From a virus (Duplodnaviria > Heunggongvirae > Uroviricota > Caudoviricetes): a DNA stretch of 12,498 nt. Position numbers and translations under genes: made by a program. Positions within the stretch are counted from its first letter, which is position 1. Each line of letters opens with the position of its first letter. Shown here one piece after another: positions 1-12,498 of the stretch. Below the pieces are notes generated by a model, which saw nothing but the letters and a program-made list of their open reading frames with translations, made no database searches and was not told where the DNA came from. The DNA is taken from the IMG/VR virus record IMGVR_UViG_2896595138_000006; one strand, given 5' to 3'.

Positions 1-795
1 GTGCCGGAACTGACCCGCAGGACCACGAGAGGCAAAAAAGAGAGACAGAGGCCCGAAGTCGAAAATGTGGCGGCGGCATGGTACCAGGTGAAAATCAGCC
101 AGAATCTGGCCGCCAACAGTGGGCTGATTGATGCCAATCCGGCTATGAATGTGCGTAAGGCGTTTCCCTCACCTGTAAAAAAACATATGCCAACAATCCG
201 CCCCGAACAGCTGCCGGAGCTTATGCAGGCTTTATCAGTATCGGCAACAGAACGGCAGACCAGATTACTGATTGAATGGCAGTTACTGACCGTAACCCGT
301 CCCGCCGAAGCGTCATCAACGCGGTGGGATGAAATCAACCTGGACGCGAAGCAATGGACGATACCTGCCGGACGCATGAAGATGCGCAGGGATCACGTTA
401 TCCCGCTTTCCGGTCAGGCTATGGCGGTGCTGGAGGCCATGAAACCAATCAGCCACCACCGCAATTACGTTTTCCCAAGTCTGAAAGACCCACAGCAGCC
501 GATGAACAGCCAGACCGCTAACGCAGCATTGCGGCGTATGGGATTCGCTGGCGTGCTGGTGTCTCATGGATTACGCGCCATATTCAGCACAGCAGCGAAC
601 GAGGAAGGATTCGAGCCGGACGTAATAGAGGCGGCACTTGCCCACGTCGACACCAACGAAGTTAGACGGGCATACAACCGGAGCAACTACATAGAAAAAC
701 GCATCGTGCTGATGCGCTGGTGGGGCGAATTTGTCGAGGCTGCGGCGACGGGCGTAACCCTCGCCAGTGGTAAAAGGGGTATCCGAGCCGTGTAG
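1..795 (+). CDS. int: Tyrosine integrase, P4-like family; C-terminal 264 codons only (5' end of the gene lies upstream of the window)
   Basis: Frame is open from base 1 to TAG at 793-795. Translation shows the catalytic-domain pattern of phage tyrosine recombinases (WDEINLD..WTIPAGRMKMRRDHVIPL, HGLRAIFSTAANE, LAHVDTNEVRRAYNRSNY). Recognised as P4/CP4-type integrase from memory; no search run. Confidence 0.9.
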   Translation: MPELTRRTTRGKKERQRPEVENVAAAWYQVKISQNLAANSGLIDANPAMNVRKAFPSPVKKHMPTIRPEQLPELMQALSVSATERQTRLLIEWQLLTVTRPAEASSTRWDEINLDAKQWTIPAGRMKMRRDHVIPLSGQAMAVLEAMKPISHHRNYVFPSLKDPQQPMNSQTANAALRRMGFAGVLVSHGLRAIFSTAANEEGFEPDVIEAALAHVDTNEVRRAYNRSNYIEKRIVLMRWWGEFVEAAATGVTLASGKRGIRAV

Positions 796-802
796 CTGTA
801 CA

Positions 803-837
803 GAAAACCAGTAAAAACTACGAAAACCATGTAAAAC
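803..837 (+). repeat. Two 16-bp direct repeats (GAAAACCAGTAAAAAC at 803-818, GAAAACCATGTAAAAC at 822-837), 19-bp period, immediately downstream of int
   Basis: Read directly; 15/16 identity. Lies just upstream of a TATAAT hexamer at 844-849. Function unknown (candidate protein-binding sites). Confidence 0.6.
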
Positions 838-872
838 CATCGTATAATTGCATCAAATTTAACGACAAGGCC

Positions 873-1124
873 GTGAAACATGAAACCGTTAAGATGCAAA
901 AAAATATCAGATGCAATTGCGACGGGCTGCAACTGGCCCTGATGGTTCAGCATGAATTTTGGTCAACCTACGATCCGGAGGACAGAACGACGGCCCCATC
1001 AAAAAAACAGGTAGTAGATTTTCTGGTATCCCGTGGCGCTTCCAGAAATCTGGCGGTAAGTATTGATAAGGTCGTACGTCCGGCATCTATGAAGATCGGA
1101 GGCAGGCCCCAAAAATGGCGGTAA
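873..1124 (+). CDS. Hypothetical small protein (GTG start at 873, or ATG at 894)
   Basis: ORF ends at TAA 1122-1124, followed 12 bp later by a strong intrinsic terminator. No convincing Shine-Dalgarno sequence for either start and no recognisable motif. Confidence 0.3.
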   Translation: MKHETVKMQKNIRCNCDGLQLALMVQHEFWSTYDPEDRTTAPSKKQVVDFLVSRGASRNLAVSIDKVVRPASMKIGGRPQKWR

Positions 1125-1135
1125 CAATCCTGGAA

Positions 1136-1158
1136 GCGGCAGAAATGCCGCTTTTTTT
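1136..1158 (+). terminator. Rho-independent terminator (GCGGCA-gaaa-TGCCGC followed by T7)
   Basis: 6-bp GC-rich stem 1136-1141/1146-1151, 4-nt loop, T run 1152-1158. Confidence 0.55.
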
Positions 1159-1270
1159 ATAATTCCATTTCAAATCATCAATATAAAAACGGTGGGAACT
1201 GTTTTTACCCATATCCGATGATTTACCGTATTTGTCACCGGAATACACCGGATTCACAAGGTAAATCACG

Positions 1271-1477
1271 ATGGAAGCAATCAGAAAAATTATCTTTCGC
1301 CAGGAAGTAAAAAAAATTATCCACATCAAGGCAGACAGCACGCTGCAAAGCATGATCAACGCCGGAGAATTTCCGCAGGGTTTTCGCGTTGGTTTACGCC
1401 GTCGCGGATGGTATGAGGATGATGTGTTGGCCTGGCAGAAAGAACGCGAACAGGAAGCACGCGGAACGGCTGCTTAA
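1271..1477 (+). CDS. alpA: AlpA-family (Phage_AlpA / excisionase-like) transcriptional regulator
   Basis: 68 aa. The pattern EV..I.....STL...I..GEFP.G...G.R..GW...DV..W matches the AlpA/MerR-like HTH fold as remembered. Position next to the integrase is typical of P4-like and PICI elements. Confidence 0.8.
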   Translation: MEAIRKIIFRQEVKKIIHIKADSTLQSMINAGEFPQGFRVGLRRRGWYEDDVLAWQKEREQEARGTAA

Positions 1478-1513
1478 CGGGTATCACAGATATGACAAAC
1501 ACGAAAAAAGCGG

Positions 1514-1526
1514 CCCCGATATGGAG
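1514..1526. repeat. Left copy of the 13-bp target-site duplication (CCCCGATATGGAG) flanking IS4
   Basis: Identical 13-mer at 1514-1526 and 2953-2965, directly abutting the IS4 ends. Confidence 0.85.
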
Positions 1527-2952
1527 TAATGCCGATCAGTTAAGGATCAGTTGACCGATCCAGTGGCTGTGTAAGAATCCGGAAACGCTCACTTGTTTCC
1601 GGATTTTTTTATGCACATTGGACAGGCTCTTGATCTGGTATCCCGTTACGATTCTCTGCGTAACCCACTGACTTCTCTGGGGGATTACCTCGACCCCGAA
1701 CTCATCTCTCGTTGCCTTGCCGAATCAGGTACTGTAACGCTACGCAAGCGCCGTCTTCCCCTCGAAATGATGGTCTGGTGTATTGTTGGCATGGCGCTTG
1801 AGCGTAAAGAACCTCTTCACCAGATTGTGAATCGCCTGGACATCATGCTGCCGGGCAATCGCCCCTTCGTTGCCCCCAGTGCCGTTATTCAGGCCCGCCA
1901 GCGCCTGGGAAGTGAGGCTGTCCGCCGCGTGTTCACGAAAACAGCTCAGCTCTGGCATAACGCCACGCCGCATCCGCACTGGTGCGGCCTGACCCTGCTG
2001 GCCATCGATGGTGTGTTCTGGCGCACACCGGATACACCAGAGAACGATGCAGCCTTCCCCCGCCAGACACATGCCGGGAACCCGGCGCTCTACCCGCAGG
2101 TCAAAATGGTCTGCCAGATGGAACTGACCAGCCATCTGCTGACGGCTGCAGCCTTCGGCACGATGAAGAACAGCGAAAATGAGCTTGCTGAGCAACTTAT
2201 AGAACAAACCGGCGATAACACTCTGACGTTAATGGATAAAGGTTATTACTCACTGGGACTGTTAAATGCCTGGAGCCTGGCGGGAGAACACCGCCACTGG
2301 ATGATACCTCTCAGAAAGGGAGCGCAATATGAAGAGCTCAGAAAACTGGGTAAAGGCGATCATCTGGTGAAGCTGAAAACCAGCCCGCAGGCACGAAAAA
2401 AGTGGCCGGGACTGGGAAATGAAGTGACAGCCCGCCTGCTGACCGTGACGCGCAAAGGAAAAGTCTGCCATCTGCTGACGTCGATGACGGACGCCATGCG
2501 CTTCCCCGGAGGAGAAATGGCGGATCTGTACAGTCATCGCTGGGAAATCGAACTGGGATACAGGGAGATAAAACAGACGATGCAACTGAGCAGGCTGACG
2601 CTGAGAAGTAAAAAGCCGGAGCTTGTGGAGCAAGAGCTGTGGGGTGTCTTACTGGCTTATAATCTGGTGAGATATCAGATGATTAAAATGGCGGAACATC
2701 TGAAAGGTTACTGGCCGAATCAACTGAGTTTCTCAGAATCATGCGGAATGGTGATGAGAATGCTGATGACATTGCAGGGCGCTTCACCGGGACGTATACC
2801 GGAGCTGATGCGCGATCTTGCAAGTATGGGACAACTTGTGAAATTACCGACGAGAAGGGGAAGGGCCTTCCCGAGAGTGGTAAAGGAGAGGCCCTGGAAA
2901 TACCCCACAGCCCCGAAAAAGAGCCAGTCAGTTGCTTAACTGACTGGCATTA
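1527..2952 (+). mobile_element. Insertion sequence IS4, complete copy (1426 bp)
   Basis: Terminal inverted repeats TAATGCCGATCAGTTAAG (1527-1544) and CTTAACTGACTGGCATTA (2935-2952), 16/18 match. The 1426-bp length and the 442-aa transposase agree with IS4 as remembered. Flanked by a 13-bp direct duplication. Confidence 0.92.
1611..2939 (+). CDS. insG: IS4 transposase (DDE family)
   Basis: 442 aa starting [16 protein letters not shown]. Matches the E. coli IS4 transposase essentially throughout, from memory. A hairpin plus T run (1577-1610) sits immediately before the ATG. Confidence 0.92.
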
Positions 2953-2965
2953 CCCCGATATGGAG
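2953..2965. repeat. Right copy of the IS4 target-site duplication (CCCCGATATGGAG)
   Basis: See left copy. Confidence 0.85.
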
Positions 2966-3280
2966 CCGCCTTTCTGAACAATTAACCCGCTGCGCCTTAT
3001 GTGTATGTGATCCCAAACATAAGCACGGGGATGATAGACGCTATCAGGCTGGTTCAGTTCGTTGCCATACCTGCAATGAGCGCGTTTCCCTGTACTCTTT
3101 AAGGAATTGCTCAAGGGCAAAAGCACATGGTGCGAATCTTTCTGATTCATGCTCGAGCGCCATATTTTCGTGCTCTCTGTTCGTTTTTTGCGATGGTGTA
3201 TTGGTTGATTCTTTGTTGGTCATTGTGTGTACCTGTAAAGCAATGCGCCGTAGCACCTCACGCCACGGCGCTGATAGTGA

Positions 3281-3478
3281 TTATTCTGATTCTTTGGCCT
3301 TCCTGCGCTGTTCATATTTTAATTTGCGTCCACAGGCATCTAAGACCCATGCGGAAAAATTAGCACTAGGATTAGTTAATTTTTCTTGTTCAACGCTGGC
3401 ATAAACCCCATCTATAAGCTCATGTGGGAATCGAATATTTTTCTTTGCTGATTTGTTGTTTGTGTTACCGCTAGACAT
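3281..3478 (-). CDS. Arc/Mnt-like ribbon-helix-helix DNA-binding protein (putative repressor)
   Basis: 65 aa. The segment NIRFPHELIDGVYASVEQEKLTNPSANFSAWVLDA resembles the beta-strand plus two-helix pattern of P22 Arc (..NLRWPREVLDLVRKVAEENGRSVNSEIYQRV..). Shine-Dalgarno GAGGT lies 6 nt before the ATG on the minus strand. Divergent from an operator-bearing promoter. Confidence 0.6.
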   Translation of the reverse strand: MSSGNTNNKSAKKNIRFPHELIDGVYASVEQEKLTNPSANFSAWVLDACGRKLKYEQRRKAKESE

Positions 3479-3505
3479 TGATGCACCTCACTTAAATGGA
3501 CTTTA

Positions 3506-3586
3506 TGGGCGCACACAATACAGCAAAAAAAATGAGATGTTAAGTATTGACATGTGCGCACACATGATTTTAATCTGTGCGCACAG
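3506..3586 (+). promoter_or_regulatory. Rightward sigma70-like promoter (TTGACA 3547-3552, 16-bp spacer, TTTAAT 3569-3574) with palindromic operators TGTGCGCACA at 3553-3562 and 3576-3585 and a 9/10 copy at 3506-3515
   Basis: Hexamers and perfect 10-bp palindromes read directly. One operator sits in the -35/-10 spacer and one at about +1; the third lies in the leader of the divergent RHH gene. Confidence 0.45.
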
Positions 3587-3846
3587 TTTGAGTTTTGTCA
3601 CTCAAATTAAGCAACGCCCCGCAGTGCTCGCAACACATGCAGGGCGTCTAACCACCAACGATAGCAACAGTATCGAGGTAGCTATGTTAAATCATACCAC
3701 ACACCTGCAAGGGCGGGACTCGCACAACCTGAATAAAGCGGGTATGAAAAACCAGTTGATCGCCACTGCCAGCCAAGGCTATGATTCGCGTGCACCTTAT
3801 AAAACGGGTGCCGGGATTAGGACCCCGCTGACAATCGAGGCGATAC

Positions 3847-3869
3847 AGACGCCGCACGCGTCTTTTTTT
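3847..3869 (+). terminator. Intrinsic terminator inside the rightward leader (AGACGC-cgcac-GCGTCT then T7)
   Basis: 6-bp stem 3847-3852/3858-3863, T run 3863-3869. Lies about 280 nt downstream of the promoter and before the first icd-like unit. Could define a leader RNA or an attenuator. Confidence 0.4.
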
Positions 3870-3931
3870 GTATCGACGCACACGCACACCTATACAATGG
3901 TGGGCTGTATGGGGCTACCTTCGGGTAGGCT

Positions 3932-4028
3932 GGTTCCCTTGATTGCCAGTAGTCCTAACCCTGTACAGTCCACCGCCAGCGAGCTTAGGACCTCCGGCGG
4001 TGGTTACATTCCATCAATCAAGGAGGCT
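3932..4028 (+). promoter_or_regulatory. Unit-1 leader element: anti-Shine-Dalgarno segment (3932-3945) complementary to the Shine-Dalgarno region (4015-4028) of the first icd-like ORF
   Basis: CCTTGATTG (3937-3945) is the exact reverse complement of CAATCAAGG (4015-4023), which overlaps the Shine-Dalgarno sequence AAGGAGG (4020-4026). Confidence 0.35.
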
Positions 4029-4034
4029 GCCGAC

Positions 4035-4223
4035 ATGGCTACTACCCCTACCCTTGTACATTCTCAAACAGCCTTTCTCTGGCGCTTTATCGCCTTTGGT
4101 GCGTCAGAGTCCCAAATCATCCACGTCACCGCCTGGACTGAACGCGAAGCGCGTAACCATTGCCCGTCCGGTTGTGTTGCTGTATTCGCGGCCCGTATTC
4201 GTCAGGGGGTTGGCCATGCGTAA
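4035..4223 (+). CDS. Small Icd-like/Ash-family protein (62 aa); a longer in-frame form could begin at ATG 3897
   Basis: Strong Shine-Dalgarno AAGGAGG 8 nt upstream of the ATG at 4035. Motifs FLWRF, TAWTEREAR and FAARIRQG are shared with the downstream paralogue. The family name is recalled from annotations of P4-like islands, not verified. Confidence 0.55.
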   Translation: MATTPTLVHSQTAFLWRFIAFGASESQIIHVTAWTEREARNHCPSGCVAVFAARIRQGVGHA

Positions 4224-4315
4224 AAACAACTTGCAAAAAATTACCGTGGGGCTGTATTCTTCCCCGTCGCCCACATGGCGACCGGGTTTGACAGCCTGAA
4301 TAGCAAAGCGGACAG

Positions 4316-4344
4316 CCGCTTACATTCCGATATGCGGTTTTTTT
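4316..4344 (+). terminator. Terminator-like hairpin plus T7 run between the two icd-like units
   Basis: CCGC (4316-4319) and GCGG (4334-4337) flank a 14-nt loop, followed by T run 4338-4344. An alternative tight hairpin GCGG-acag-CCGC lies at 4308-4319. Same position relative to unit 2 as the terminator at 3847-3869 has relative to unit 1. Confidence 0.3.
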
Positions 4345-4409
4345 GTGTCCGTAAACCTACCCATACCCGCATTATGGCGGGGCGTAACGGGGGAGCCTTT
4401 GCGCTCGCT

Positions 4410-4502
4410 GGTTTCTTTGCTGCCAGTCTGTCAACCCTGTTACGTCCCGCCACCATGTTTGACAGCGTGCTGGCGAGACTCCTTACATCAAGCAAAGGAG
4501 CC
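4410..4502 (+). promoter_or_regulatory. Unit-2 leader element: anti-Shine-Dalgarno segment (4410-4421) complementary to the Shine-Dalgarno region (4491-4502) of the second icd-like ORF
   Basis: GGTTTCTTTGCT can pair with AGCAAAGGAGCC over 12 positions (10 Watson-Crick plus 2 G-U), covering the Shine-Dalgarno sequence AAAGGAG (4494-4500). Confidence 0.35.
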
Positions 4503-4508
4503 TTTCAC

Positions 4509-4682
4509 ATGGCTGTATCCGCACGCCCTTACTTTGTCTGGCGCTTTATGCAGTGCCTGACAGACAGCATTGCAATATTCACCGTTACCGCAGCCACTGA
4601 ACGCGAAGCCCGCGCGCAGCTGCCGCACGCACATCTGATTTTTGTCGCCCGTATTCGCCAGGGGGAAACCTATGCACAATAA
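4509..4682 (+). CDS. Small Icd-like/Ash-family protein, paralogue of 4035-4223 (57 aa); a longer in-frame form could begin at ATG 4374
   Basis: Shine-Dalgarno AAAGGAG 8 nt upstream. Shares WRF, TEREAR and ARIRQGE motifs with the upstream copy, with DNA-level similarity across the unit. Confidence 0.55.
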   Translation: MAVSARPYFVWRFMQCLTDSIAIFTVTAATEREARAQLPHAHLIFVARIRQGETYAQ

Positions 4683-4893
4683 AACCACACCGGACGCAGC
4701 CGCCGCCGCACTCACTACGCTGATGCACGCGCTTATTGATATTGAATGCACAGCAGAGCTTGCACGAAAGGAAGAACGGGAAGAATACACATTGTTCGCC
4801 CTGGAATGTATCCGATACATCGCAACGCGGTCGCTGAATGACGCTAAAAATATTCTTGTTGCTGATTGTGAAAATGGGGGGTGCCCCTATTAA
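4672..4893 (+). CDS. Hypothetical protein (73 aa)
   Basis: Start overlaps the stop of the preceding ORF (ATGCACAATAA), suggesting translational coupling. GGGGGAA lies upstream. Stop is 13 bp from the end of the IS110-family recombinase gene, so the 3' end may have been altered by the insertion. Confidence 0.45.
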   Translation: MHNKTTPDAAAAALTTLMHALIDIECTAELARKEEREEYTLFALECIRYIATRSLNDAKNILVADCENGGCPY

Positions 4894-4906
4894 GTTGTCA
4901 AGCATG

Positions 4907-6103
4907 TTATGACCCCTGCGGGGTATAAAAAGTCCCGTCGCGCATCATGGCGAACAGAACGTCGCAGCGTCGTCTCGCCAGGGCGATAAGCGCCTGATTG
5001 TGTCGTTTTCCCTGACTCATTTTGCGGGTGTAGTAAGCCCTGGAGAGCGGATCCCTGAGCGCGGCGAAGGCCAACAGGAACAACGCCCGTTTGAGAGCTT
5101 TATTACCCCGTCGCGAGGGATGCTCACCGCGTATTGACGAGCCGGATCGCCGAGTTACCGGCGCAAGGCCAGCATAAGCAGCGAGATGTGCGGCAGAGGC
5201 GAAGGCGCGGCAGGCGACCTCGGTGAGGAGTCTGGCTGCGGTCCTGACACCGACTCCGGGCATACTGGTCAGGACCGGGTAAAGAGGGTGAGCAAGAACT
5301 CGCTGTTCTACCTCAAGCGCCACCTCGTCTCTTTGCTTACGCAGCGTGATGAGCTGGAGTGCCAGACGTGGCAGTACTACGGCAGCGGCATTCGTGCCGG
5401 GAACGACGACGGTTTGTTCGGCCAGTGCCTGAGCTATGTCTGCTGCAAGGCGTTTACCCAGACGAGGCGCAAGTTTGCAGAGCTGGGCTGCCAGCTTCTT
5501 CTCACCCAGCGAAGCGAGTTTTTCTGGTGAGGGATATCGCTGGAGAAGATCGAGTACCGCCGGGTGCTCAAGTCTCGGACCGAGAACGCGCTCCAGTGCC
5601 GGATGTATCTGGGTCAGAAGGCCGCGGAGACGGTTGCTGGCCTGCGTTGTCTGTGCGGCAAGATCATCATCGAAGCCGCAGAGCATGGAGAGTTCGGCGA
5701 TTTGCTCGTCAGCCAGTTTCAGCGTGCGTAGCGCGTGAGGCAGGGTACGGGCAGCTTCGGCAATGATGGCAGCGTCACGAGCATCAGTTTTAGCTTCACC
5801 GGCGTGTAAGTCGGCTATGCGGCGCATGGCCAGTCCAGGGAGGTATCCGACAAGGACTCCTTCTGAGCGGGCAACGGCGACAGGTAACGCACCGATGGTA
5901 GCTGGCTGATCAACAACCAGCAGTATCTGACCATGTTGTTTCAGGTCAGATATTAGCGACCTGAGTTTGTTTTCGTCGTTGGGTAATGCTTTATCGAACA
6001 GGCGTTTACCTGAACGATTAATGGCAACAGCGTGATGCGTATCTTTACCGACATCAACGCCGATAAAGACCTGGACGGATTCGTAATCGCTGGATTCGGT
6101 CAT
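4907..6103 (-). CDS. IS110-family transposase/recombinase (N-terminal DEDD RuvC-like domain plus C-terminal Transposase_20 domain)
   Basis: N-terminus VFIGVDVGKDTHHAVAI and C-terminal LTSMPGVGVRTAARLL...AAYAGLAPVTRRSGSS are the hallmark motifs of IS110-family enzymes. Shine-Dalgarno AGGGAG lies 5 nt before the ATG on the minus strand. Confidence 0.9.
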   Translation of the reverse strand: MTESSDYESVQVFIGVDVGKDTHHAVAINRSGKRLFDKALPNDENKLRSLISDLKQHGQILLVVDQPATIGALPVAVARSEGVLVGYLPGLAMRRIADLHAGEAKTDARDAAIIAEAARTLPHALRTLKLADEQIAELSMLCGFDDDLAAQTTQASNRLRGLLTQIHPALERVLGPRLEHPAVLDLLQRYPSPEKLASLGEKKLAAQLCKLAPRLGKRLAADIAQALAEQTVVVPGTNAAAVVLPRLALQLITLRKQRDEVALEVEQRVLAHPLYPVLTSMPGVGVRTAARLLTEVACRAFASAAHLAAYAGLAPVTRRSGSSIRGEHPSRRGNKALKRALFLLAFAALRDPLSRAYYTRKMSQGKRHNQALIALARRRCDVLFAMMRDGTFYTPQGS

Positions 6104-6330
6104 TCTGTCTCCCTTGTATATGGGTTAACCAGATAACCACGGGGAGCAGGTACCGGCATCCACGTTACAGACGGTCCCGGCAAAAGTGCCTGACCTGACC
6201 CCTATTAGCGATTACCAGCGCCCCACCAGACCCGGTGACATCACCCCCGGATCATGGACGACTGGGGGCAGTAATCATGCCGGGTCTGGCTGGCTAACAC
6301 CCCATTATAAGGGGTACGAATAAAGTAACG
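6104..6330 (-). ncRNA. Candidate bridge (guide) RNA region of the IS110-family element
   Basis: The non-coding 5' flank of the recombinase contains a 10-bp perfect inverted repeat CCAGACCCGG (6226-6235) / CCGGGTCTGG (6280-6289) enclosing a CCCCC/GGGGG inner stem, plus a further hairpin at 6299-6315. IS110-group elements are known to encode a structured RNA here. Not folded or searched. Confidence 0.3.
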
Positions 6331-6335
6331 GGGTT

Positions 6336-6569
6336 ATGCGTGATATTTACATTGAAATAACAGACCGCGCATTTCTTGCACTTTCTCACAGTGAAAATAT
6401 GTTGGAAATATTGCAAATGTGTCTGGAAACATTTGGCGATAATGAGCGTGATAAACAGAAATCAAGGATTGTCACGGCATTAATAACGCTTCTTGAGCCT
6501 GTAATAAATGAGTTGCAGGAAATAGAGACATTACACGACCAGTATAAAGCGCCCCACACCGGAGAATAA
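6336..6569 (+). CDS. Hypothetical protein (77 aa)
   Basis: ATG start with a weak GGGG upstream. Predicted helical, no recognisable motif. Lies immediately beside the probable IS boundary. Confidence 0.4.
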   Translation: MRDIYIEITDRAFLALSHSENMLEILQMCLETFGDNERDKQKSRIVTALITLLEPVINELQEIETLHDQYKAPHTGE

Positions 6570-6574
6570 AAATA

Positions 6575-6670
6575 ATGAAACTTAAATATCCTGGCTTAAC
6601 TGCCAGCGGCAAAACTCGCACTAAATTCATGCGCGGGATATTTACCGCGATAAGTACGGCGGCACGGTAA
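6575..6670 (+). CDS. Hypothetical small ORF (31 aa)
   Basis: Shine-Dalgarno GGAG lies 10 nt upstream of the ATG. Too short to judge. Confidence 0.25.
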   Translation: MKLKYPGLTASGKTRTKFMRGIFTAISTAAR

Positions 6671-6681
6671 TAATTAAGGGC

Positions 6682-6873
6682 GTGGAGGAACGGCGCGTAA
6701 CCTACCGTCGTGAAGGCTACGAATATGATTGCGTGATGCCTGTTTATCAGTTCGACCGTGATTTTTCTCTTGTGCAGGCCGTACCGCGTAACGTGCCCAC
6801 CAGCAGGGAGAAAGCACGCGCCAATATTCAGGAAATAAAAAAGATGCTTAACGTATTCAGGGGTAAAAAATGA
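6682..6873 (+). CDS. Hypothetical protein (63 aa, GTG start), translationally coupled to the primase gene
   Basis: Its stop overlaps the primase start (ATGA at 6870-6873). Upstream Shine-Dalgarno spacing is poor, so the start is uncertain. Confidence 0.35.
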   Translation: MEERRVTYRREGYEYDCVMPVYQFDRDFSLVQAVPRNVPTSREKARANIQEIKKMLNVFRGKK

Positions 6874-8624
6874 AACTGGCACCGAACGTAAAAAAACAGC
6901 CACGCGGAATAAAACACAAAGACACAGAGGTAATTATCTTTGCGGGTAGTGATGCCTGGGCACACGCGAAACAGTGGCAGGAACATGACGCGCGTACAGC
7001 CGGAGATAATGAGCCTCCTGTGTGGCTTGGAGAGCAGCAGCTATCCGAACTGGATAATCTGCAAATTGTGCCGGATGGCAGAAAATCAGCACGCATATAC
7101 AGAGCCGGACATCTTGAGCCTGTAATGATCAAGGCGATTGGTCAGAAGCTGGCGGCGGCAGGTGTACAGGATGCAAATTTTTATCTTGAGGGTATGCACG
7201 GCCAGGAGGTGCAGAACTGGCGCGAATATCTGGCCCGTGAACGCCAGAATCTTTCTGATGGTCTGGTCATTGAGCTTCCGGTAAAGCAAAAGGCGCAACT
7301 TTCGCAGATGGCAGACAGTGAGCGCGCACAGATGCTTGCTGGTCGATTTGATGGCGTTTGTGTGCATCCGGAAAGTGAAATCGTTCACGTATGGCGCGGC
7401 GGGATATGGTGTCCGGTCAGCACAATGGAACTGAGCCGCGAAATGGTGGCGGTTTATTCAGAACACGGGGCCACATTCAGCAAGCGGGCAATTAATAACG
7501 CCGTTGAAGCGTTAAAAGTTATTGCTGACCCGATGGGCGAGCCGTCCAGTGATTTGCTACCGTTCACTAATGGTGTGCTTAACCTGAAAACGGGGGAATT
7601 TTCCCCGCACACGCCGGAGAACTGGATCACCACGCACAACGGCATTGAGTACACGCCACCAGCACCAGGGGAGAATATCCGCGACAACGCGCCAAACTTT
7701 CATAAATGGCTTGATCACGCAGCCGGAAAAGACCCGCGCAAGATGATGCGCATATGTGCCGCGCTTTACATGATTATGGCGAACCGGTACGACTGGCAGA
7801 TGTTTATTGAGGCCACCGGAGACGGCGGGAGCGGTAAAAGTACATTCACACACATAGCCAGCCTTCTGGCAGGGAAACAGAACACGGTAAGCGCTGAAAT
7901 GACATCGCTTGATGATGCTGGTGGACGTGCGCAGGTTGTCGGGAGTCGTCTTATCGTCCTGGCTGACCAGCCGAAATATACAGGCGAAGGAACGGGCATC
8001 AAGAAAATCACGGGCGGCGACCCCGTGGAAATTAACCCGAAATATGAAAAGCGTTTCACGGCGGTAATCAGGGCGGTGGTGCTGGCGACCGACAACAACC
8101 CGATGATATTCACCGAACGGGCCGGAGGTGTGGCACGTCGTCGCGTGATTTTCCGTTTCGACAATATCGTCAGTGAGGCCGAAAAAGACAGGGAGCTACC
8201 GGAAAAGATTGCGGCTGAAATCCCCGTTATTATCCGCCGATTGCTGGCGAACTTTACCGACCCTGAGAAGGCACGGGCTTTACTACTGGAACAGCGTGAC
8301 GGTGATGAAGCACTGGCAATAAAGCAACAGACGGATCCGGTTATTGAGTTTTGCCAGTTCCTGAATTTTCTGGAGGAAGCGCGCGGCCTGATGATGGGTG
8401 GCGGTGGTGATTCAGTGAAGTACACGACCAGGAACAGCCTTTACCGCGTCTATCTGGCGTTTATGGCATACGCAGGCAGGAGCAAACCGCTAAACGTAAA
8501 TGACTTTGGCAAGGCTATGAAGCCTGCCGCAAAAGTTTACGGACATGAATATATTACGCGGAAAGTTAAGGGGGTAACGCAGACTAACGCAATAACAACA
8601 GACGAGTGCGACGCGTTTTTATAA
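6870..8624 (+). CDS. Primase/helicase, phage P4 alpha-like (D5-N-type plus SF3 helicase domain)
   Basis: 584 aa. Walker A motif ATGDGGSGKSTF and the surrounding pattern (IVLADQP, VLATDNNP) match the P4-family primase C-terminal helicase domain as remembered. The N-terminal 200 aa are consistent with a Toprim-like domain. Followed by the iteron cluster. Confidence 0.88.
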   Translation: MKLAPNVKKQPRGIKHKDTEVIIFAGSDAWAHAKQWQEHDARTAGDNEPPVWLGEQQLSELDNLQIVPDGRKSARIYRAGHLEPVMIKAIGQKLAAAGVQDANFYLEGMHGQEVQNWREYLARERQNLSDGLVIELPVKQKAQLSQMADSERAQMLAGRFDGVCVHPESEIVHVWRGGIWCPVSTMELSREMVAVYSEHGATFSKRAINNAVEALKVIADPMGEPSSDLLPFTNGVLNLKTGEFSPHTPENWITTHNGIEYTPPAPGENIRDNAPNFHKWLDHAAGKDPRKMMRICAALYMIMANRYDWQMFIEATGDGGSGKSTFTHIASLLAGKQNTVSAEMTSLDDAGGRAQVVGSRLIVLADQPKYTGEGTGIKKITGGDPVEINPKYEKRFTAVIRAVVLATDNNPMIFTERAGGVARRRVIFRFDNIVSEAEKDRELPEKIAAEIPVIIRRLLANFTDPEKARALLLEQRDGDEALAIKQQTDPVIEFCQFLNFLEEARGLMMGGGGDSVKYTTRNSLYRVYLAFMAYAGRSKPLNVNDFGKAMKPAAKVYGHEYITRKVKGVTQTNAITTDECDAFL

Positions 8625-8636
8625 TTTTTTGTAATT

Positions 8637-8855
8637 GCTGTCTACCTGAGCAAAGGAAAATACATTTAATTCAGTACATTAAGTTAGGTAGACAGCTTTT
8701 TTTTACTGTCTACCCACTATCTACCCTCTCTACCTGATTTTACCTGAATCAGACAGGGAGGTAGACACGGGGTAGATAGTGGATAAAAACACTCTACCCC
8801 GCTGAAAGCCGCGCCATTACTGGCATGAGGGCCAGCAAGGTAGATAAGGTAGACA
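8637..8855. repeat. Iteron cluster, probable replication origin (ori/crr-like): about 10 copies of the octamer TGTCTACC / GGTAGACA and close variants
   Basis: TGTCTACC at 8639-8646 and 8707-8714; TATCTACC at 8718-8725; TCTCTACC at 8727-8734; GGTAGACA at 8687-8694, 8760-8767 and 8848-8855; GGTAGATA at 8771-8778 and 8839-8846; partial copies at 8738-8744 and 8793-8799. An 11-bp perfect inverted repeat (8637-8647 / 8686-8696) flanks an AT-rich 38-bp spacer and is followed by a T8 run. The octamer resembles the P4 alpha-binding repeat TGTTCACC. Confidence 0.65.
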
Positions 8856-8902
8856 AGGGGAGGCACAACTCAAAACTTTTTAAACGAGGGGTAAAAATAA
8901 AC

Positions 8903-9064
8903 ATGCACACTTCAGGAAAATTTAATAAATCACTCAAAAAACGCAGAGACAGAACAGAACCGAAATATCGCGCGTTAGACATGACAGAGCACGCTTTAAA
9001 GGTGGCAATCAGAACGATAGACCGCCACGCGGGGAAGGATACGCGAAGGAACATCCCGACCTGA
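8903..9064 (+). CDS. Hypothetical small basic protein (53 aa)
   Basis: ATG at 8903 with GAGGGG about 12 nt upstream. Lys/Arg-rich. The 5' part of the longer ORF in the track overlaps the iterons and was trimmed. Confidence 0.3.
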   Translation: MHTSGKFNKSLKKRRDRTEPKYRALDMTEHALKVAIRTIDRHAGKDTRRNIPT

Positions 9065-9176
9065 TAAGCGCATTCATGACCACAGCAGCGGCAAACTTTG
9101 CCACGCTGACAGAACGGGAGATTGCCGAAGCGGAACAGGTAACAACCATCAACGTTAAAACCGGAGAGGTGGAATC

Positions 9177-9587
9177 ATGACAGCACAGATAGCAGCTTAC
9201 GGACGGTTGGTGGACGACCCGCAGGTAAAACAGACCAGCAAGGGCACACCGATGACGCTGGCGCGTATGGCGGTATCGCTGCCATGCAGCCAGGCACAGG
9301 ACGGACAGGCGACGTTATGGCTATCGGTGATGGCATTTGGTAAGCAGGCCGACTTCCTGGCTAAACATCAAAAAGGCGACGTTGCCAGCGTATCCGGCAC
9401 GATGCAGGTCAGCCAGTGGACCGGACAGAACGGGGAAACGCGGCAGGGTTATCAGGTTATTGCCGACAGCGTAATCAGTGCCCGAGCGGCACGCCCTGGC
9501 GGGAACAGACGCAAAACCACAGGCACACAGGGTAATCAGCCACCAGCGGGAGACGATGACCCCTACGGTGATGATATTCCGTTCTGA
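9177..9587 (+). CDS. ssb: Single-stranded DNA-binding protein (SSB), phage/plasmid type
   Basis: 136 aa. OB-fold pattern (G.L..DP.V.......P..LA......WLSVMAFGKQADFLAKH.KGD...V.G......W....G..R.G) followed by a Gly/Gln-rich linker and the acidic tail DDDPYGDDIPF characteristic of SSB. Shine-Dalgarno GGAGAGGTGG upstream. Confidence 0.85.
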   Translation: MTAQIAAYGRLVDDPQVKQTSKGTPMTLARMAVSLPCSQAQDGQATLWLSVMAFGKQADFLAKHQKGDVASVSGTMQVSQWTGQNGETRQGYQVIADSVISARAARPGGNRRKTTGTQGNQPPAGDDDPYGDDIPF

Positions 9588-9595
9588 ACGCACAG

Positions 9596-9617
9596 GCCGG
9601 AGAAAATCCGGCTTTTT
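9596..9617 (+). terminator. Rho-independent terminator after ssb (GCCGGA-gaaaa-TCCGGC followed by T5)
   Basis: Stem 9596-9601/9607-9612, T run 9613-9617. Confidence 0.6.
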
Positions 9618-9623
9618 GTACCC

Positions 9624-9667
9624 AAAAAAAGCCCGATAAGTACAGGAGGAAGCTTATCGGGCTTTTG
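9624..9667. terminator. Second, probably bidirectional terminator (A7, 11-bp perfect stem AGCCCGATAAG / CTTATCGGGCT, T4)
   Basis: Stem 9630-9640/9653-9663 with a 12-nt loop, an A run on the 5' side and a T run on the 3' side. Confidence 0.5.
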
Positions 9668-9740
9668 CTTACGAGGTTAACAGCATGGTGACTACTGTTG
9701 TCGTAAATCATTTCATAATTTGCAATGCAACTCAATTCTA

Positions 9741-9797
9741 TTGCACAAAATGCAACTATGATTATAATTATAACTGGATGTACATCCAGTTATAATT
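9741..9797 (+). promoter_or_regulatory. Promoter of the head module (TTGCAC 9741-9746, 16-bp spacer, TATAAT 9763-9768) overlapped by a 32-bp perfect palindrome operator (9766-9797)
   Basis: AATTATAACTGGATGTACATCCAGTTATAATT is perfectly self-complementary about the 9781/9782 centre and overlaps the -10 hexamer and start region. Direct repeats TGCAACT lie at 9725-9731 and 9751-9757. Confidence 0.5.
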
Positions 9798-9824
9798 TTT
9801 TAAGTCGAAAAGGAATTTCTGACT

Positions 9825-10031
9825 ATGACAGAAGAGAAAAAAGGCGGGGTGACAGTTTACATAAGCCCCGATATCGTGGAGGCGCTCAAGGAACGCCACC
9901 AGCAGAACGTAAAAGCGGGCATTGCGGCAGGACTTGATCCGCTGGCGATGGTTGAGCCGTCAACAGGCTGGCAGGTACGCGCCTATTTACGTGCGGCGCT
10001 TGGCATGAATCAGACTCATGAGGGTGAATAA
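9825..10031 (+). CDS. Hypothetical protein (68 aa), first gene of the head module
   Basis: AAGGA lies 10 nt upstream. Stop overlaps the capsid gene start (TAATG), suggesting translational coupling. No recognisable motif. Confidence 0.5.
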   Translation: MTEEKKGGVTVYISPDIVEALKERHQQNVKAGIAAGLDPLAMVEPSTGWQVRAYLRAALGMNQTHEGE

Positions 10032-11086
10032 TGGCAGACAAAGCAACGGCACTTAACACTAACCAGCTTTTCGCGTACCTGAATCGCGGGGATATCCCGG
10101 AATTTAAATTCAGTCCGCTGTTTACCACGCTGTTTTTCCCGAAAGTAGCAACCTTCAACACACAAGATGTCATGCTGGATACCCTGGACATTGAAGAAGT
10201 CACCATGTCGGCGTTTTGTTCGCCTGTGGTGGGTAGCCAGGTTCAGCGTGATAAAGGGTACGAAACAAGCACTATCCGCCCTGGCTACATGAAACCCAAA
10301 CACGAAATCGATCCATCAAAAACCATCATGCGCATGGCTGGAGAAGATCCGGCACTGCTTAACGACCCCACCTGGCGACGTATGCGCCTCATTACTGGCA
10401 ACATGCGCCGCCAGATAAACGCCATTAAAGCGCGTGTGGAATGGCTGGCAGTGAATGCGGTCACGACCGGAAAAAACATCATTGAAGGCGAAGGCATAGA
10501 ACGCTATGAAATCGACTGGAATATGCCGGCAAACTGCATTGTCCATCAGGGGCCAGGAAAAAAATGGTCTGAGCAGAATAAAGAGACGCATGATCCGACA
10601 GATGACATCGAGCTATACGCCGAACAGGCCAGCTGCCCCGCCAACGTCATGATTATGGGCGCTGACGTATGGCGCACCTTACGTAGCTTTAAAAAATTCC
10701 GCGAGCTGTACGATCTTTCCCGTGGTTCAGAATCCGCCGCAGAGCTGGCGTGTAAAAACCTGGGCGAAGTGGTGAGCTTTAAAGGCTATCTGGGTGATCT
10801 GGCCCTTATCGTCTATTCCGGCAAATACACCGACAGCGACGGCACCGAAAAATATTTCCTTGAGCCTGATTTGCTTGTCCTGGGCAACACCAGCAATAAA
10901 GGTCTGGTGGCCTATGGCGCGATTATGGATCCGGAAGCGGTAAGAACGGGCGCAACGCAAAACATGTACTACCCGAAAAACTGGATTGAGAGCGGCGATC
11001 CGGCGATTGAGTACGTGCAGACGCACAGCGCACCGCAGCCGGTTCCGGCAGATATCCGCAAATTTGTTACTGTGAAAATTGGTTAA
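10031..11086 (+). CDS. Major capsid protein, lambda gpE-like (Phage_cap_E family)
   Basis: 351 aa. Multiple blocks align by eye with lambda gpE: FKFSPLFTTLFF, PGYMKPKHE, HDPTDDIELYA, LRSFKKF, LGEVVSFKGYLGDLALIVYSGKY, LVLGNTSNKGLVAYGAIMD, YYPKNWIESGDPAIEY and QTHSAPQP. Shine-Dalgarno GAGGGTGA upstream. Confidence 0.9.
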   Translation: MADKATALNTNQLFAYLNRGDIPEFKFSPLFTTLFFPKVATFNTQDVMLDTLDIEEVTMSAFCSPVVGSQVQRDKGYETSTIRPGYMKPKHEIDPSKTIMRMAGEDPALLNDPTWRRMRLITGNMRRQINAIKARVEWLAVNAVTTGKNIIEGEGIERYEIDWNMPANCIVHQGPGKKWSEQNKETHDPTDDIELYAEQASCPANVMIMGADVWRTLRSFKKFRELYDLSRGSESAAELACKNLGEVVSFKGYLGDLALIVYSGKYTDSDGTEKYFLEPDLLVLGNTSNKGLVAYGAIMDPEAVRTGATQNMYYPKNWIESGDPAIEYVQTHSAPQPVPADIRKFVTVKIG

Positions 11087-11097
11087 CGGGAGATTCT

Positions 11098-11401
11098 ATG
11101 GGCACTCCATATGTTGAGTTATATGCAGGCACACAGCAGGTTGCCACGACGCTGGTACATTTTTCCGCTGATGCTGGCGGACAATGGCGAGTTTAAGGCG
11201 TGGGATGGTCAGGAATCTGGCAAGGCTGTTTATCTGACGGCGTACCCCGTGGACACGTCAAAGCAGAAATCAGCACAGTGTTACAAGACGGGGATATTTA
11301 ATATCGCCGCCGTTAACTGGCCCGAGAGCGTCGACACCGACGCGAAAAAATGCGCCGCTTTTGCGGGTTCTGGCGTATCCGTTCAGCCACTGGTGCGATA
11401 A
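11098..11401 (+). pseudogene. Head decoration protein, lambda gpD / phage 21 SHP-like, with an apparent +1 frameshift in a T5 run (11160-11164)
   Basis: Shine-Dalgarno GGGAG lies 6 nt before ATG 11098, and that frame stops at 11194-11196. The gpD-like sequence continues in the +1 frame to TAA 11399-11401 (PLMLADNGEFKAWDG...YKTGIF...WPESVDTDAKKCAAFAGSG versus lambda PLMLDTSSRKLVAWDG...YKSGTF...WPEAASDETKKRTAFAGTA). Deleting one T from the T5 run gives a continuous 100-aa gpD-like ORF. Confidence 0.6.
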
Positions 11402-11413
11402 GCAGGGGGAACG

Positions 11414-11827
11414 ATGGCAATCAATGAAGCTATCATGGCGCTACCGCTGGCGAGTAAATTTAAAGCCGAAGCGCGGGCAATGGCGGACAGAGGTTTATCA
11501 ACCTACGAGGCTATATATCAACTTAACAAACTGGAAGAGCAGGACAAGCCGCGCACTGATGCGATTATGGCGCTTCATGAATCTGACGACTATCAGCCGC
11601 TGTTACGTGCAATGGCAAACGTGCCATGTATTAGCGTCGATAATGCCCGGGAAATCCTGAACATGACCATAGAGCAGGAACGCCCGAAGGTTGCGCCGGA
11701 GCTTACCGCAGCCTTTGAAAACTTTATGGACATGCACAGCCCGCAGGCCGTAAGCCCTGGCATGGCATACGATGGCAGATATCAGGGTGATGACGGCGAA
11801 ATCGATCGCATACTGAAAACCATCTGA
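11414..11827 (+). CDS. Hypothetical acidic protein (137 aa) in the head module
   Basis: Shine-Dalgarno AGGGGGAA upstream of the ATG. Followed directly by a strong terminator. No recognisable motif; predicted largely helical. Confidence 0.6.
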   Translation: MAINEAIMALPLASKFKAEARAMADRGLSTYEAIYQLNKLEEQDKPRTDAIMALHESDDYQPLLRAMANVPCISVDNAREILNMTIEQERPKVAPELTAAFENFMDMHSPQAVSPGMAYDGRYQGDDGEIDRILKTI

Positions 11828-11833
11828 GAAAAG

Positions 11834-11857
11834 GCCGGAGAAATCCGGCTTTTTTTT
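11834..11857 (+). terminator. Rho-independent terminator (GCCGGA-gaaa-TCCGGC followed by T8)
   Basis: Stem 11834-11839/11844-11849, T run 11850-11857. The stem sequence is nearly identical to the terminator at 9596-9617. Confidence 0.65.
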
Positions 11858-11932
11858 GCGGGTCCTTCCGGTGGGGTGGCCTGCCACGGGGCGGGAGCGG
11901 CGCAGAATTTCACTATTTATGAAAATTTTTCG

Positions 11933-12035
11933 GAAACCATGTCCGGTTTCTCTGAAGGTTAACCATTTGAAAAATATAGAAATGCGCTTTCTGCGAACCG
12001 GACATGCGCAAAAATTGAACACTCAAACCGGACAT
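11933..12035. promoter_or_regulatory. Three copies of an 11-bp motif AAACCGGACAT (one inverted) upstream of the last gene
   Basis: ATGTCCGGTTT at 11939-11949 (inverted, inside the GAAACC-N6-GGTTTC dyad 11933-11950), GAACCGGACAT at 11995-12005, AAACCGGACAT at 12025-12035. The last two are 30 bp apart. Confidence 0.4.
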
Positions 12036-12113
12036 ATATGCCGCGTTTCATAAAGTTGTTCGCAAGATGCATGTTTAAAACGCATGAGGGGAGATTTTTG
12101 GGCGAGGTGAACA

Positions 12114-12498
12114 GTGGCTACTCAGACTGAAGTTGCCAGGCATTTGAGTCTGACCGATCGCCAGCTTCGCAGATTACAGAAATTGTTCCCCCATCACTAT
12201 GGAAACCATAACCATGACCGACGCCGAACTACTGAAAGTAATCCGCCGTATTACCGGAATCTGTCAGGCAACAGGCAAACAGGTGGCCACGCAGCCGGAC
12301 AGCGTCACCGCTGAAAATTACGCGCGTGTGGTGGCTGAGGTGATGCGCCGTGACGGTATTGAGCTTAACGGCGTGGATATGCGCAACATACGAACAAGAG
12401 TCCTTGAGTTGCTGGCATATCGTCGCCGTTCTCAACAACGGAGGGAGAGCGCGAAAAATACTTACCAGTGGAGGAAGCCGGAGCACTTACGGCGGTAA
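12114..12498 (+). CDS. Putative HTH-type DNA-binding protein (possibly small-terminase-like or a regulator), apparently frameshifted at a C5 run (12188-12192); alternatively an independent ORF 12214-12498
   Basis: GAGG lies 6 nt before GTG 12114. The N-terminus ATQTEVARHLSLTDRQLRRLQKL looks like a helix-turn-helix, but that frame then becomes low-complexity and stops at 12314. The +1 frame (12199-12498) reads as a normal protein and ends exactly at the window end. Deleting one C from the C5 run fuses the two into a ~128-aa ORF. Confidence 0.4.

Follow-up and report, generated by a model that had tools for sequence, protein, structure and literature searches.

The region at positions 9741-12498 of a 12,498-nt viral sequence (IMG/VR record IMGVR_UViG_2896595138_000006; the whole stretch is referred to below as the window) very probably represents the late module, for packaging and morphogenesis, of a phage-inducible chromosomal island (PICI) of the classical Gram-negative type and of the EcCICFT073 family, carried in a partly decayed form on a Shigella-type chromosome. 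From left to right, the module consists of a promoter-like site with a conserved palindrome, a small open reading frame (ORF) designated orf68, three genes related to the head genes of phage lambda (the capsid gene E', the frameshifted decoration gene D', and the scaffold-like gene Nu3'), a terminator, a 327-bp copy of a helper cos region, and a last small ORF. Capsid and decoration homologues on a PICI backbone have already been published and probed experimentally: those of EcCICFT073 (c1499 and c1500) were described in 2018 (Fillol-Salom, PMC6092414), and the results were restated in a review (PMC6893505). In the literature searched, we did not find the Nu3 homology, the captured cos, the conserved palindrome, or the existence of a satellite-specific head-gene lineage.

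The identification as an EcCICFT073-type PICI follows from gene order and protein identity. The right end of the island in Escherichia coli CFT073 reads as a 68-aa ORF, capsid, decoration, a 137-aa ORF, a 144-aa ORF, and a 93-aa ORF, and the window has the same order, except that the 144-aa ORF has no counterpart; the other proteins share 91%, 90%, 81-95% (in two frames), 88%, and 67% identity with their CFT073 equivalents (67-91% for c1498-c1501 and the last ORF). It also follows from the upstream integrase, AlpA-like gene, pri-rep, iterons, and SSB gene, and from a 16-bp repeat that brackets approximately 12 kb in sister loci, with chromosomal genes on both sides. The element thus has the features of a classical Gram-negative PICI: an integrase at the left end, a specific attachment (att) site and a size of approximately 10-15 kb, a pri-rep gene followed by an iteron origin, and a packaging determinant (cos) without a full set of virion or lysis genes. 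The original prediction, made from the DNA alone, had proposed a satellite backbone, and an integrase, a D5/P4-type primase, iterons, and also an SSB gene were found in it, with the AlpA-like helix-turn-helix (HTH) protein matched only weakly. The gene order, which was to be compared with those of capsid-forming PICIs (cf-PICIs) and P4-like satellites, fitted neither and agreed instead with classical EcCICFT073 (67-91%).

Window positions 31-12498 are 100% identical to positions 1-12468 of the contig CP026845.1 (locus L004), and the exact capsid protein carries the label 'MULTISPECIES [Shigella]' in NCBI nr. Sister copies (L003 and L005-L008) share 99.4-99.9% identity with the window, and E. 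coli copies (L001 and that of Nissle 1917, L009) approximately 90%. In both groups, the island lies directly after tRNA-Pro(GGG), between yejM and yejO/narP. The 16-bp direct repeat, TTTTAGTTATACGTTT, brackets 11,975 bp in L006 and is taken as the putative att site; its right-hand copy (candidate attR) occurs at position 13613 of the source contig, 1,145 bp past the window end, whereas the attL of the source genome lies outside the view because the window begins inside int. Coverage of at least 80% of window positions 9000-12498 was found in 482 of the 5,426 complete E. coli genomes, and 2,436 had some match; the element is common, and what the window contributes is a further, decayed copy from Shigella. 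When species-representative genomes were scanned twice, once with the capsid protein and once with the PICI capsid alignment, no relatives were found, and NCBIfam had no name for any late-module protein.

Downstream of the window, the source contig contains approximately 1.15 kb of non-coding DNA, the candidate attR, and then yejO, narP, and ccm genes (gene calls and Pfam marks), so the expectation that terminase or portal genes might lie just beyond the window end was not borne out. No supported gene was present in this tail (L004 12469-13612), Rfam gave no family match there, and a 143-aa ORF called downstream of the window looks spurious, having no family match. Imperfect repeats occur there in pairs, GGGGAAAGGTGCGCACCTGAATCACCA and GGTGGAAAGATGCGTACCTGAATCATCA, together with several clusters of 'GTTAAC(A/T)' close to attR. 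No portal, protease, terminase, tail, or lysis genes were found in the island (tblastn of the PICI loci; gene calls and Pfam marks for L004). Queries with lambda Nu1, A, W, B, C, FI, and FII, with RppA, and with the Nissle TerS found none of these genes in PICI-type loci (tblastn), and the nine-query tblastn of the source contig returned module genes only, with no RppA or PICI TerS. The predicted lack of portal, protease, tail, and lysis genes therefore stands, but the predicted lack of a scaffold does not, because the ORF at 11414-11827 is the homologue of the gpC/Nu3 C-terminus described below.

These gene contents bear on the suggestion that the element is a capsid-forming satellite, similar to the cf-PICIs, that builds its own lambda-type heads, with the remaining genes just downstream. 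The island does encode capsid, decoration, and scaffold-like homologues, and this set is satellite-specific and under purifying selection. However, in the source contig and in all sister loci, the island ends within approximately 1.15 kb, without portal, protease, connector, HNH, TerS, or TerL genes, and a cf-PICI by definition possesses every one of them (10.1101/2022.09.08.507074). Furthermore, EcCICFT073 DNA is found in phage-sized capsids, and its packaging needs the phage TerS (PMC6092414). This very improbable reading is already refuted on gene content. The distinct capsid-forming strategy that had been proposed for this DNA is likewise not supported, since the gene set that defines a cf-PICI (10.1101/2022.09.08.507074) is not present and the EcCICFT073 homologues are dispensable (PMC6092414).

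The intact E' gene (10031-11086, plus strand, 351 aa) encodes a lambda gpE-family major capsid homologue and is the counterpart of c1499. Its product matched the Pfam family Phage_cap_E (PF03864) with an E-value of 1.5e-48 (166 bits against a cut-off of 22.9), residues 26-349 aligning to profile positions 14-328 of 329, i.e., over nearly the full length, and it matched PHROG 29 with an E-value of 2e-104. It shared 43% identity with lambda E over 328 aa (E=1e-93), and a search of PDB sequences returned the lambda capsid 7VI9 (E=1.5e-82) and the entry 3BQW, 'putative capsid protein of prophage' (E=2e-217). The sequence of 3BQW matches the CFT073 protein translated from NC_004431, and E' is 90% identical to c1499 of that strain. 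An HK97-type fold is assumed for E' by homology to the lambda capsid entries. The gpE-family capsid gene that had been predicted at these coordinates is therefore confirmed as intact (Pfam, lambda E, and 7VI9).

The decoration gene D' (11098-11401, plus strand) belongs to the lambda gpD family and is inactivated. Its sequence matched the Pfam family HDPD (PF02924; E=9.4e-15, 55 bits against 29.1, profile positions 40-112 of 116) and PHROG 49 (E=1e-21), and the near-intact allele of L003 was 35% identical to lambda D over 65 aa. The interval 11098-11401 is not an ORF: translation begun at the ATG at 11098 runs for 32 codons before a stop, and only the ORF at 11111-11401 preserves the 75 C-terminal, gpD-like residues, with the N-terminal third out of frame. 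Alignment with the E. coli copies showed that the frameshift is due to a 32-bp deletion between two copies of CCGCTGATGCTGGCG, with its junction at 11163/11164. Thus, the family assignment of the original prediction was correct, whereas the gene that it had taken to be intact is broken. The deletion is common to four assemblies (L004-L007) and is absent from L003 and L008, which are 99.7% identical, which argues that it is a real lineage-specific lesion. L003 lacks the 32-bp deletion and has an apparently separate late indel, and an intact 111-aa decoration gene is present in L008, L001, L002, and L010 (the CFT073 copy).

Nu3' (11414-11827, plus strand, 137 aa) is the counterpart of c1501. Profile matches, an intermediate sequence, and alignment with a helper-type prophage identify it as homologous to the scaffold part at the C-terminus of lambda gpC/Nu3, with a predicted scaffold activity. 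Its second match among PHROG profiles was PHROG 53 ('head maturation protease'; E=1e-9), confined to profile positions 474-566 of 583. It aligned with the extreme C-terminus of a gpC-like protease/scaffold ORF in the helper-type prophage L015 from IMG/VR (31% over 114 aa, E=2e-11). Among 1.8 billion representatives searched exhaustively with HMMER, it matched a 195-aa protein, P0042 (library-wide E=7.7e-5), which in turn shares 47% identity with the C-terminal part of lambda Nu3 (E=2e-16). In the alignment, Nu3' consists of two 'IMAL-E...P.(M/I)(T/S)V..A(R/K).IL' units followed by an 'F.(N/R)FM..HSP.A...GM' tail. Both the repeat unit and the tail are present in the L015 gpC-like protein, and a more diverged form occurs in lambda gpC/Nu3. 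The C-terminal motif would be the region that contacts the capsid protein.

Direct BLASTP comparison of Nu3' with lambda Nu3 or FI gave no significant alignment, tblastn against GenBank phages gave a single weak match, and a search of PDB sequences gave nothing. The AlphaFold model of Nu3' is all-helical with a disordered tail and is of low confidence (pLDDT 61-62 for this model and that of orf68), and a Foldseek search with it against viral structures found no match with an E-value below 3. The name given to the 137-aa ORF by PGAP, 'phage head-tail connector protein', was set aside as lacking profile support. No link between Nu3 and PICIs was found in the literature searched, which is absence of evidence only. 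Natural 93-aa Nu3'-like variants (P0027, P0029, and P0031) lack exactly one internal repeat, corresponding to window positions 11474-11605 and residues 21-64, consistent with recombination between the Nu3' repeats.

The head genes appear to form an old, satellite-specific lineage under constraint, rather than a recent capture. The dN/dS values (pairwise Nei-Gojobori estimates against six other PICI copies) were 0.15-0.19 for E' and 0.27-0.35 for Nu3'. Among 50,697 GenBank phage records, no capsid was more than 46.5% identical to E', and identity to the helper-type E was 45%, whereas PICI capsid copies at different chromosomal sites were 90-95% identical to each other. These values (dN/dS of 0.15-0.35, at most 46.5% identity to GenBank phage capsids, and 90-95% among PICIs) are the basis for proposing such a lineage. 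E', D', and Nu3' were all present in 11 of the 11 PICI loci examined, in an order that differs from the C/Nu3-D-E order of lambda.

The same observations argue against the idea that a rearrangement joined a remnant of the head region of an ordinary lambdoid prophage to a P4-like island. Genes of the gpE, gpD, and Nu3 families next to a lambdoid cos with a 5' stub of terS are what such a fusion would leave behind. However, the order of the head genes is not that of lambda, and their closest relatives are in PICIs at different sites and not in any GenBank phage. Moreover, a compact module bounded by direct repeats recurs (in the 482 complete E. coli genomes, at 80% coverage or more), and there are no tail or lysis genes nearby. 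A downstream tail and lysis complement, the sign of an ordinary prophage fragment, was looked for and none was found; the element is not a prophage fragment, and the fusion is scarcely credible.

The cos region has a different history. Downstream of a terminator hairpin, GCCGGAGAAATCCGGC, followed by T8 at the end of the head-gene operon (11834-11857, plus strand as read from the sequence; a scan placed the same stem on the minus strand), positions 11859-12185 (plus strand) form a captured helper cos region composed of a cosQ-like left arm, a cosN variant, R-like elements, and the 5' end of terS. Hairpin and cos region both lie in the 370-bp 'non-coding' stretch after the 137-aa gene. The cosN variant is GGGCGGGAGCGG (11889-11900; the lambda counterpart is GGGCGGCGACCT), and the region includes a lambda-like CTATTTATGAAAATTTT block. 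Three exact copies of ACCGGACAT, the only ones in the window, form the R-like elements, one inverted (11939-11947, minus strand) and two direct (11997-12005 and 12027-12035), an arrangement resembling that of R3, R2, and R1 in lambda cosB. Next comes the start of a Nu1-like terS, 24 codons long (12114-12185, plus strand), where identity to the helper stops abruptly.

Over these 327 bp, the region is 98.2-98.8% identical to the lambdoid prophage contigs L015, L020, L021, L022, and L024 of IMG/VR (46-50 kb, one of 16 kb, and L020 of 31 kb). In the lambdoid contigs, the cos segment runs into a Nu1-like terS and then homologues of A, W, B, C, D, E, FI, and FII (44-67% identity to lambda). The cos was thus copied recently, in sharp contrast to the old lineage of the head genes. 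No TerL was found anywhere in the island, in which terS is reduced to its first 24 codons, and tblastn found no match to RppA in the window or in the 8.6 kb downstream. The last ORF and a fusion ORF in L003 (see below) had no PDB match to RppC, whereas the 144-aa protein of CFT073, which is RppA, matches RppC (PDB 6HLK) with an E-value of 5e-31. Because the island cos is near-identical to the helper cos and is accompanied by neither Rpp nor TerS, the simplest inference is cos mimicry, a principle described for SaPIbov5, in which the helper's own terminase would recognise the island. The HTH stub at 12114-12185 was also considered as a decayed rpp or terS gene of the island; this is ruled out, since the stub is the edge of the 98-99% identical copy of the helper cos and terS.

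Other members of the family fill this position differently. L009 (12863-13405) and L002 (17113-17655, minus strand) contain, in either orientation, a 180-aa TerS of the Nu1 family, which shares 45% identity with the helper-type protein and occupies the slot of rppA in EcCICFT073, which is empty in the window; the packaging-specificity slot is a swappable cassette. In the window, a C5 run (12177-12181) separates the terS stub from the last ORF. L003 has C4, and the stub and the last ORF are there fused into a 127-aa ORF (L003 12113-12496) with an N-terminal TerS-type HTH; sequencing error, mutation, or phase variation could each account for the C4/C5 difference. Neither the Nu1-like PICI TerS proteins nor the L003 fusion matched anything in the PDB sequence search. 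In L020 (369-10964), PICI primase and SSB genes adjoin a truncated helper-type portal gene, with the same variant cos, an arrangement that looks like a helper-embedded PICI in gene B.

On these grounds, the following course of mobilisation can be proposed. A lambdoid helper would switch on AlpA, and the island would excise and replicate from its pri-rep/iteron origin, in the manner published for EcCICFT073. Island concatemers would be cut and packaged by the Nu1-like/gpA-like terminase of the helper, without modification, through the matching cosQ, cosN, and cosB, so that cos mimicry would dispense with Rpp and an island TerS. Island DNA would enter heads built around the helper portal, protease, and connectors, which would then be joined to helper tails. 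Nu3' may serve as an alternative internal scaffold for E', giving altered or satellite-favouring heads with a cognate helper. The reading that we prefer, at somewhat less than even likelihood, is that E', D', and Nu3' enter or compete in helper procapsid assembly; the constraint on these genes fits a specialised role in head assembly or interference.

Several observations weigh against this overall picture. The c1499::cat and c1501::tetA insertions and the deletions of c1499 or c1500 left EcCICFT073 transfer at approximately the wild-type level, lambda interference was unrelieved by deletion of c1499 or c1500, and the EcCICFT073 DNA packaged with lambda was all phage-sized (PMC6092414). These published knock-outs argue against an essential role of the three genes with the helpers tested. 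In addition, the AlpA assignment is below the Pfam threshold, and this copy carries the D' frameshift, IS4 and IS110 insertions, and a 1-nt deletion in the DUF4222 gene.

If the published negatives reflect non-cognate helpers or single-gene deletions, E', D', and Nu3' could constitute a shell kit owned by the satellite (coat, cement, and internal scaffold), placing it between classical PICIs, which take over entire helper heads, and cf-PICIs, which take over tails only. Satellite-specific and possibly smaller capsids would then be assembled around the helper portal and protease with a cognate helper that has the GGGCGGGAGCGG cos, and not with lambda. We consider this unlikely.

The dispensability for transfer (PMC6092414), set beside the purifying selection, can also be read to mean that the three genes have no role in satellite spread and act as a poison or decoy against the capsid assembly of other lambdoid phages, as host defence cargo. 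Nu3' keeps the gpC/Nu3 C-terminal motif and could compete with a phage scaffold or protease, if its inferred role is correct, and interference functions are common in this module of satellites (PMC6739421). However, cloned single genes of EcCICFT073, except c1503 (rppA), left lambda plating unreduced (PMC6739421), and lambda plaques did not reappear when c1499 or c1500 was deleted (PMC6092414). A decoy function is considered unlikely.

Alternatively, the head genes may be near-neutral leftovers of helper late-gene capture, for example by helper-embedded PICIs in gene E, and at most a spare capsid copy. PICIs inserted in the helper genes A, B, C, and E have been described with a capsid gene of their own, for which a backup role has been proposed (Mageeney et al., PMC10111431). 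The abutment of PICI genes on a truncated helper portal gene in L020 agrees with such capture, as does the breakage of D' here while its neighbours were kept. Nevertheless, dN/dS is 0.15-0.35 across copies, and the three genes are intact in nearly all copies seen. It is doubtful that a protein with 45% identity to the helper-type E could simply substitute for it, and drift would not predict the co-inheritance of three cognate partners. Leftover status is therefore distinctly unlikely.

The acknowledged puzzle is why a capsid gene that can be dispensed with in laboratory transfer is retained by most Gram-negative PICIs; a survey counted a major capsid gene in 21 of the 29 Gram-negative reference PICIs and states that transfer does not depend on it (PMC10111431). 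The puzzle is sharpened by the finding that the capsid gene is accompanied by cognate genes for decoration and for a Nu3-like scaffold, in a constrained, satellite-specific set. The wholesale copying of a helper-group cos in place of Rpp or TerS in some members points to helpers other than lambda.

Upstream of the head genes lies the control region of the module. Two terminator-like hairpins with T/A runs follow ssb (9592-9616 and 9627-9666; repeat search). A candidate sigma-70 promoter, TTGCAC-N16-TATAAT, was read from the sequence at 9741-9768 (plus strand); its TATAAT is invariant in five PICIs, and its -35 element fits the consensus at only three of six positions, so a consensus scan did not list it. 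A perfect 32-bp palindrome (AATTATAACTGGATGT joined to ACATCCAGTTATAATT) followed by T6 overlaps the -10 element at 9766-9797 (repeat search) and lies 27 nt upstream of orf68. Its core, CTGGATG(A/T)ACATCCAG, is invariant in 12 PICI loci, and its outer arms show one compensatory change from T:A to C:G and one T:G wobble. As RNA, it would form a hairpin with a dG of -13 to -20 kcal/mol followed by a U-run, and it was matched by a terminator-like scan.

Both 6-nt arms of the 16-nt core, CTGGATGTACATCCAG (9774-9789), equal those of a palindrome upstream of ruvA in MG1655, CTGGATATCTATCCAG (CTGGAT-N4-ATCCAG), with 12 of the 16 positions in common. We take the latter to be the LexA (SOS) box of ruvAB. 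The CTGG half-site deviates from the LexA consensus CTGT, and no report of a LexA operator at the PICI palindrome was found in the literature searched. According to a title cited in PMC6739421, operon I of the SaPIs is LexA-controlled. The operator-controlled module of the original prediction was thus borne out as far as a palindromic control site is concerned; operator control is plausible, and an intrinsic terminator also fits. The possibility that the control region mimics a phage late promoter was rejected, as it has no DNA similarity to any GenBank phage.

The first gene of the module, orf68 (9825-10031, plus strand), is 91% identical to CFT073 c1498 and matches PHROG 3255; its stop codon overlaps the start codon of the capsid gene (TAATG). 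Ribbon-helix-helix-like signals in its product are weak (Pfam RHH_1, E=0.21; a beta-alpha-alpha model of low confidence, pLDDT 61), and BLASTP gave no significant alignment with lambda W. The last ORF (12199-12498, plus strand; 99 aa from the ATG at 12199 or 94 aa from that at 12214) matches PHROG 1561 and is 67% identical to the final gene of EcCICFT073 (L010 3374-3655); it had no PDB or Pfam match. In the same pairwise comparisons, dN/dS was 0.12-0.30 for orf68 and 0.12-0.33 for the last ORF.

The backbone begins with the 3' part of a tyrosine integrase gene cut by the window start (1-795, plus strand; Pfam Phage_integrase, E=2e-29), which adjoins tRNA-Pro(GGG) in sister loci. The 68-aa AlpA-like HTH regulator (1271-1477, plus strand) gave a weak profile match (Pfam Phage_AlpA, E=0.0035, with 17.6 bits where the cut-off is 21), and its gene has the position of alpA in EcCICFT073-type PICIs. 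The primase/replicase gene pri-rep (6870-8624, plus strand; Pfam D5_N, DUF5906, and Pox_D5) had a dN/dS of 0.06-0.14 against sister PICIs. Directly 3' of it lies an iteron-type origin (8637-8860) with approximately eight copies of GGTAGACA/TGTCTACC in both orientations (repeat search), in agreement with the described location of the PICI ori directly after pri-rep (PMC6092414). The SSB gene follows (9177-9587, plus strand; Pfam SSB, E=5e-17; PHROG 44). In the early region, isrK and two C4 antisense RNAs scored above the Rfam gathering score (3792-3868, 3893-3980, and 4370-4457, in an Ash/Icd-like context), suggesting an antisense immunity circuit of the P1/P7 c4 type in a PICI.

The early region of this copy is interrupted by two insertion sequences. 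One is an IS4-family insertion (1528-2952, plus strand; Pfam Nterm_IS4 and DDE_Tnp_1), which neither L005 nor L006 has and which is accompanied by a target duplication of 13 bp, CCCCGATATGGAG. The other is marked by an IS110-family transposase gene (4907-6103, minus strand; Pfam DEDD_Tnp_IS110, E=5e-49, and Transposase_20). In the DUF4222 gene upstream of the primase gene (approximately 6577-6876), a 1-nt deletion in a G-run near 6636, relative to L007, splits a 99-aa ORF; either a true frameshift or an error in sequencing the homopolymer could explain it. With D' broken and two insertion sequences present, full activity is unlikely; this copy is probably impaired and may be immobile.

Among known systems, EcCICFT073 is the closest. 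It shares with the window the order orf68, c1499, c1500, c1501, cos, and last ORF (c1504 being the homologue of the last ORF), the upstream palindrome, and the class of int, alpA, and pri-rep backbone. Unlike the window, it has RppA flanked by two lambda-type cosN sites and a non-phage cosB (PMC6739421), whereas the window lacks Rpp, and its single cos reproduces the helper cosQ, cosN, and cosB and the terS 5' end, with the variant cosN GGGCGGGAGCGG. The two also differ in att site (tRNA-Pro/yejM-yejO in the window island, roxA-phoQ in CFT073), in the presence of SSB in place of the PerC of EcCICFT073, and in the frameshifted decoration gene and two insertion sequences of the window. The PICI of Nissle 1917 occupies the same tRNA-Pro site and has the same module up to the 137-aa gene, at approximately 88% DNA identity; it differs in having a lambda-type cosN and, between the 137-aa gene and the last ORF, the true Nu1-family TerS noted above (PF07471, E=2e-23; 45% to the helper-type TerS). 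Helper-embedded PICIs such as 11capE are likewise EcCICFT073-like, with their own gpE-family capsid gene and lambdoid helpers (PMC10111431); these lie inside helper late genes, whereas the window island lies at a chromosomal tRNA-Pro.

The cf-PICI EcCIEDL933 shares the int, alpA, and rep backbone type and a major capsid gene with the window (10.1101/2022.09.08.507074). However, it encodes protease, portal, connectors, HNH, TerS, and TerL and forms its own small capsids; these genes are absent from the window island, and the operon context of E' differs from the cf-PICI head operon. P4 resembles the window in its distantly related integrase, AlpA/Vis-like regulator, and D5/alpha-type primase, and in carrying a helper cos on a satellite; its cos is of the P2 type, whereas that of the window is lambdoid, and the window is without Sid, Psu, and Delta, as had been predicted. 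The late-module ORFs fall to other families, and no Psu-type match to Pfam or PHROG was found among the scanned ORFs, no dedicated Sid or Delta profile having been run. PICIs and P4 are treated as independently evolved (PMC6092414).

SaPIbov5 resembles the window in using a helper cos instead of terS and in carrying a homologue of the helper capsid protein, Ccm (PMC6092414, PMC6893505). Ccm redirects prolate helper capsids to small isometric ones, and no such redirection was seen for EcCICFT073 with lambda; SaPIbov5 has no sequence relationship to the window island and belongs to another host clade with another backbone. The CpmB of SaPI1, which we take to be a small helical alternative scaffold sharing the C-terminal capsid-binding end of the helper scaffold, is proposed only as an analogy for Nu3'. 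CpmB acts on the helper capsid protein, whereas the satellite in the window also brings its own capsid protein.

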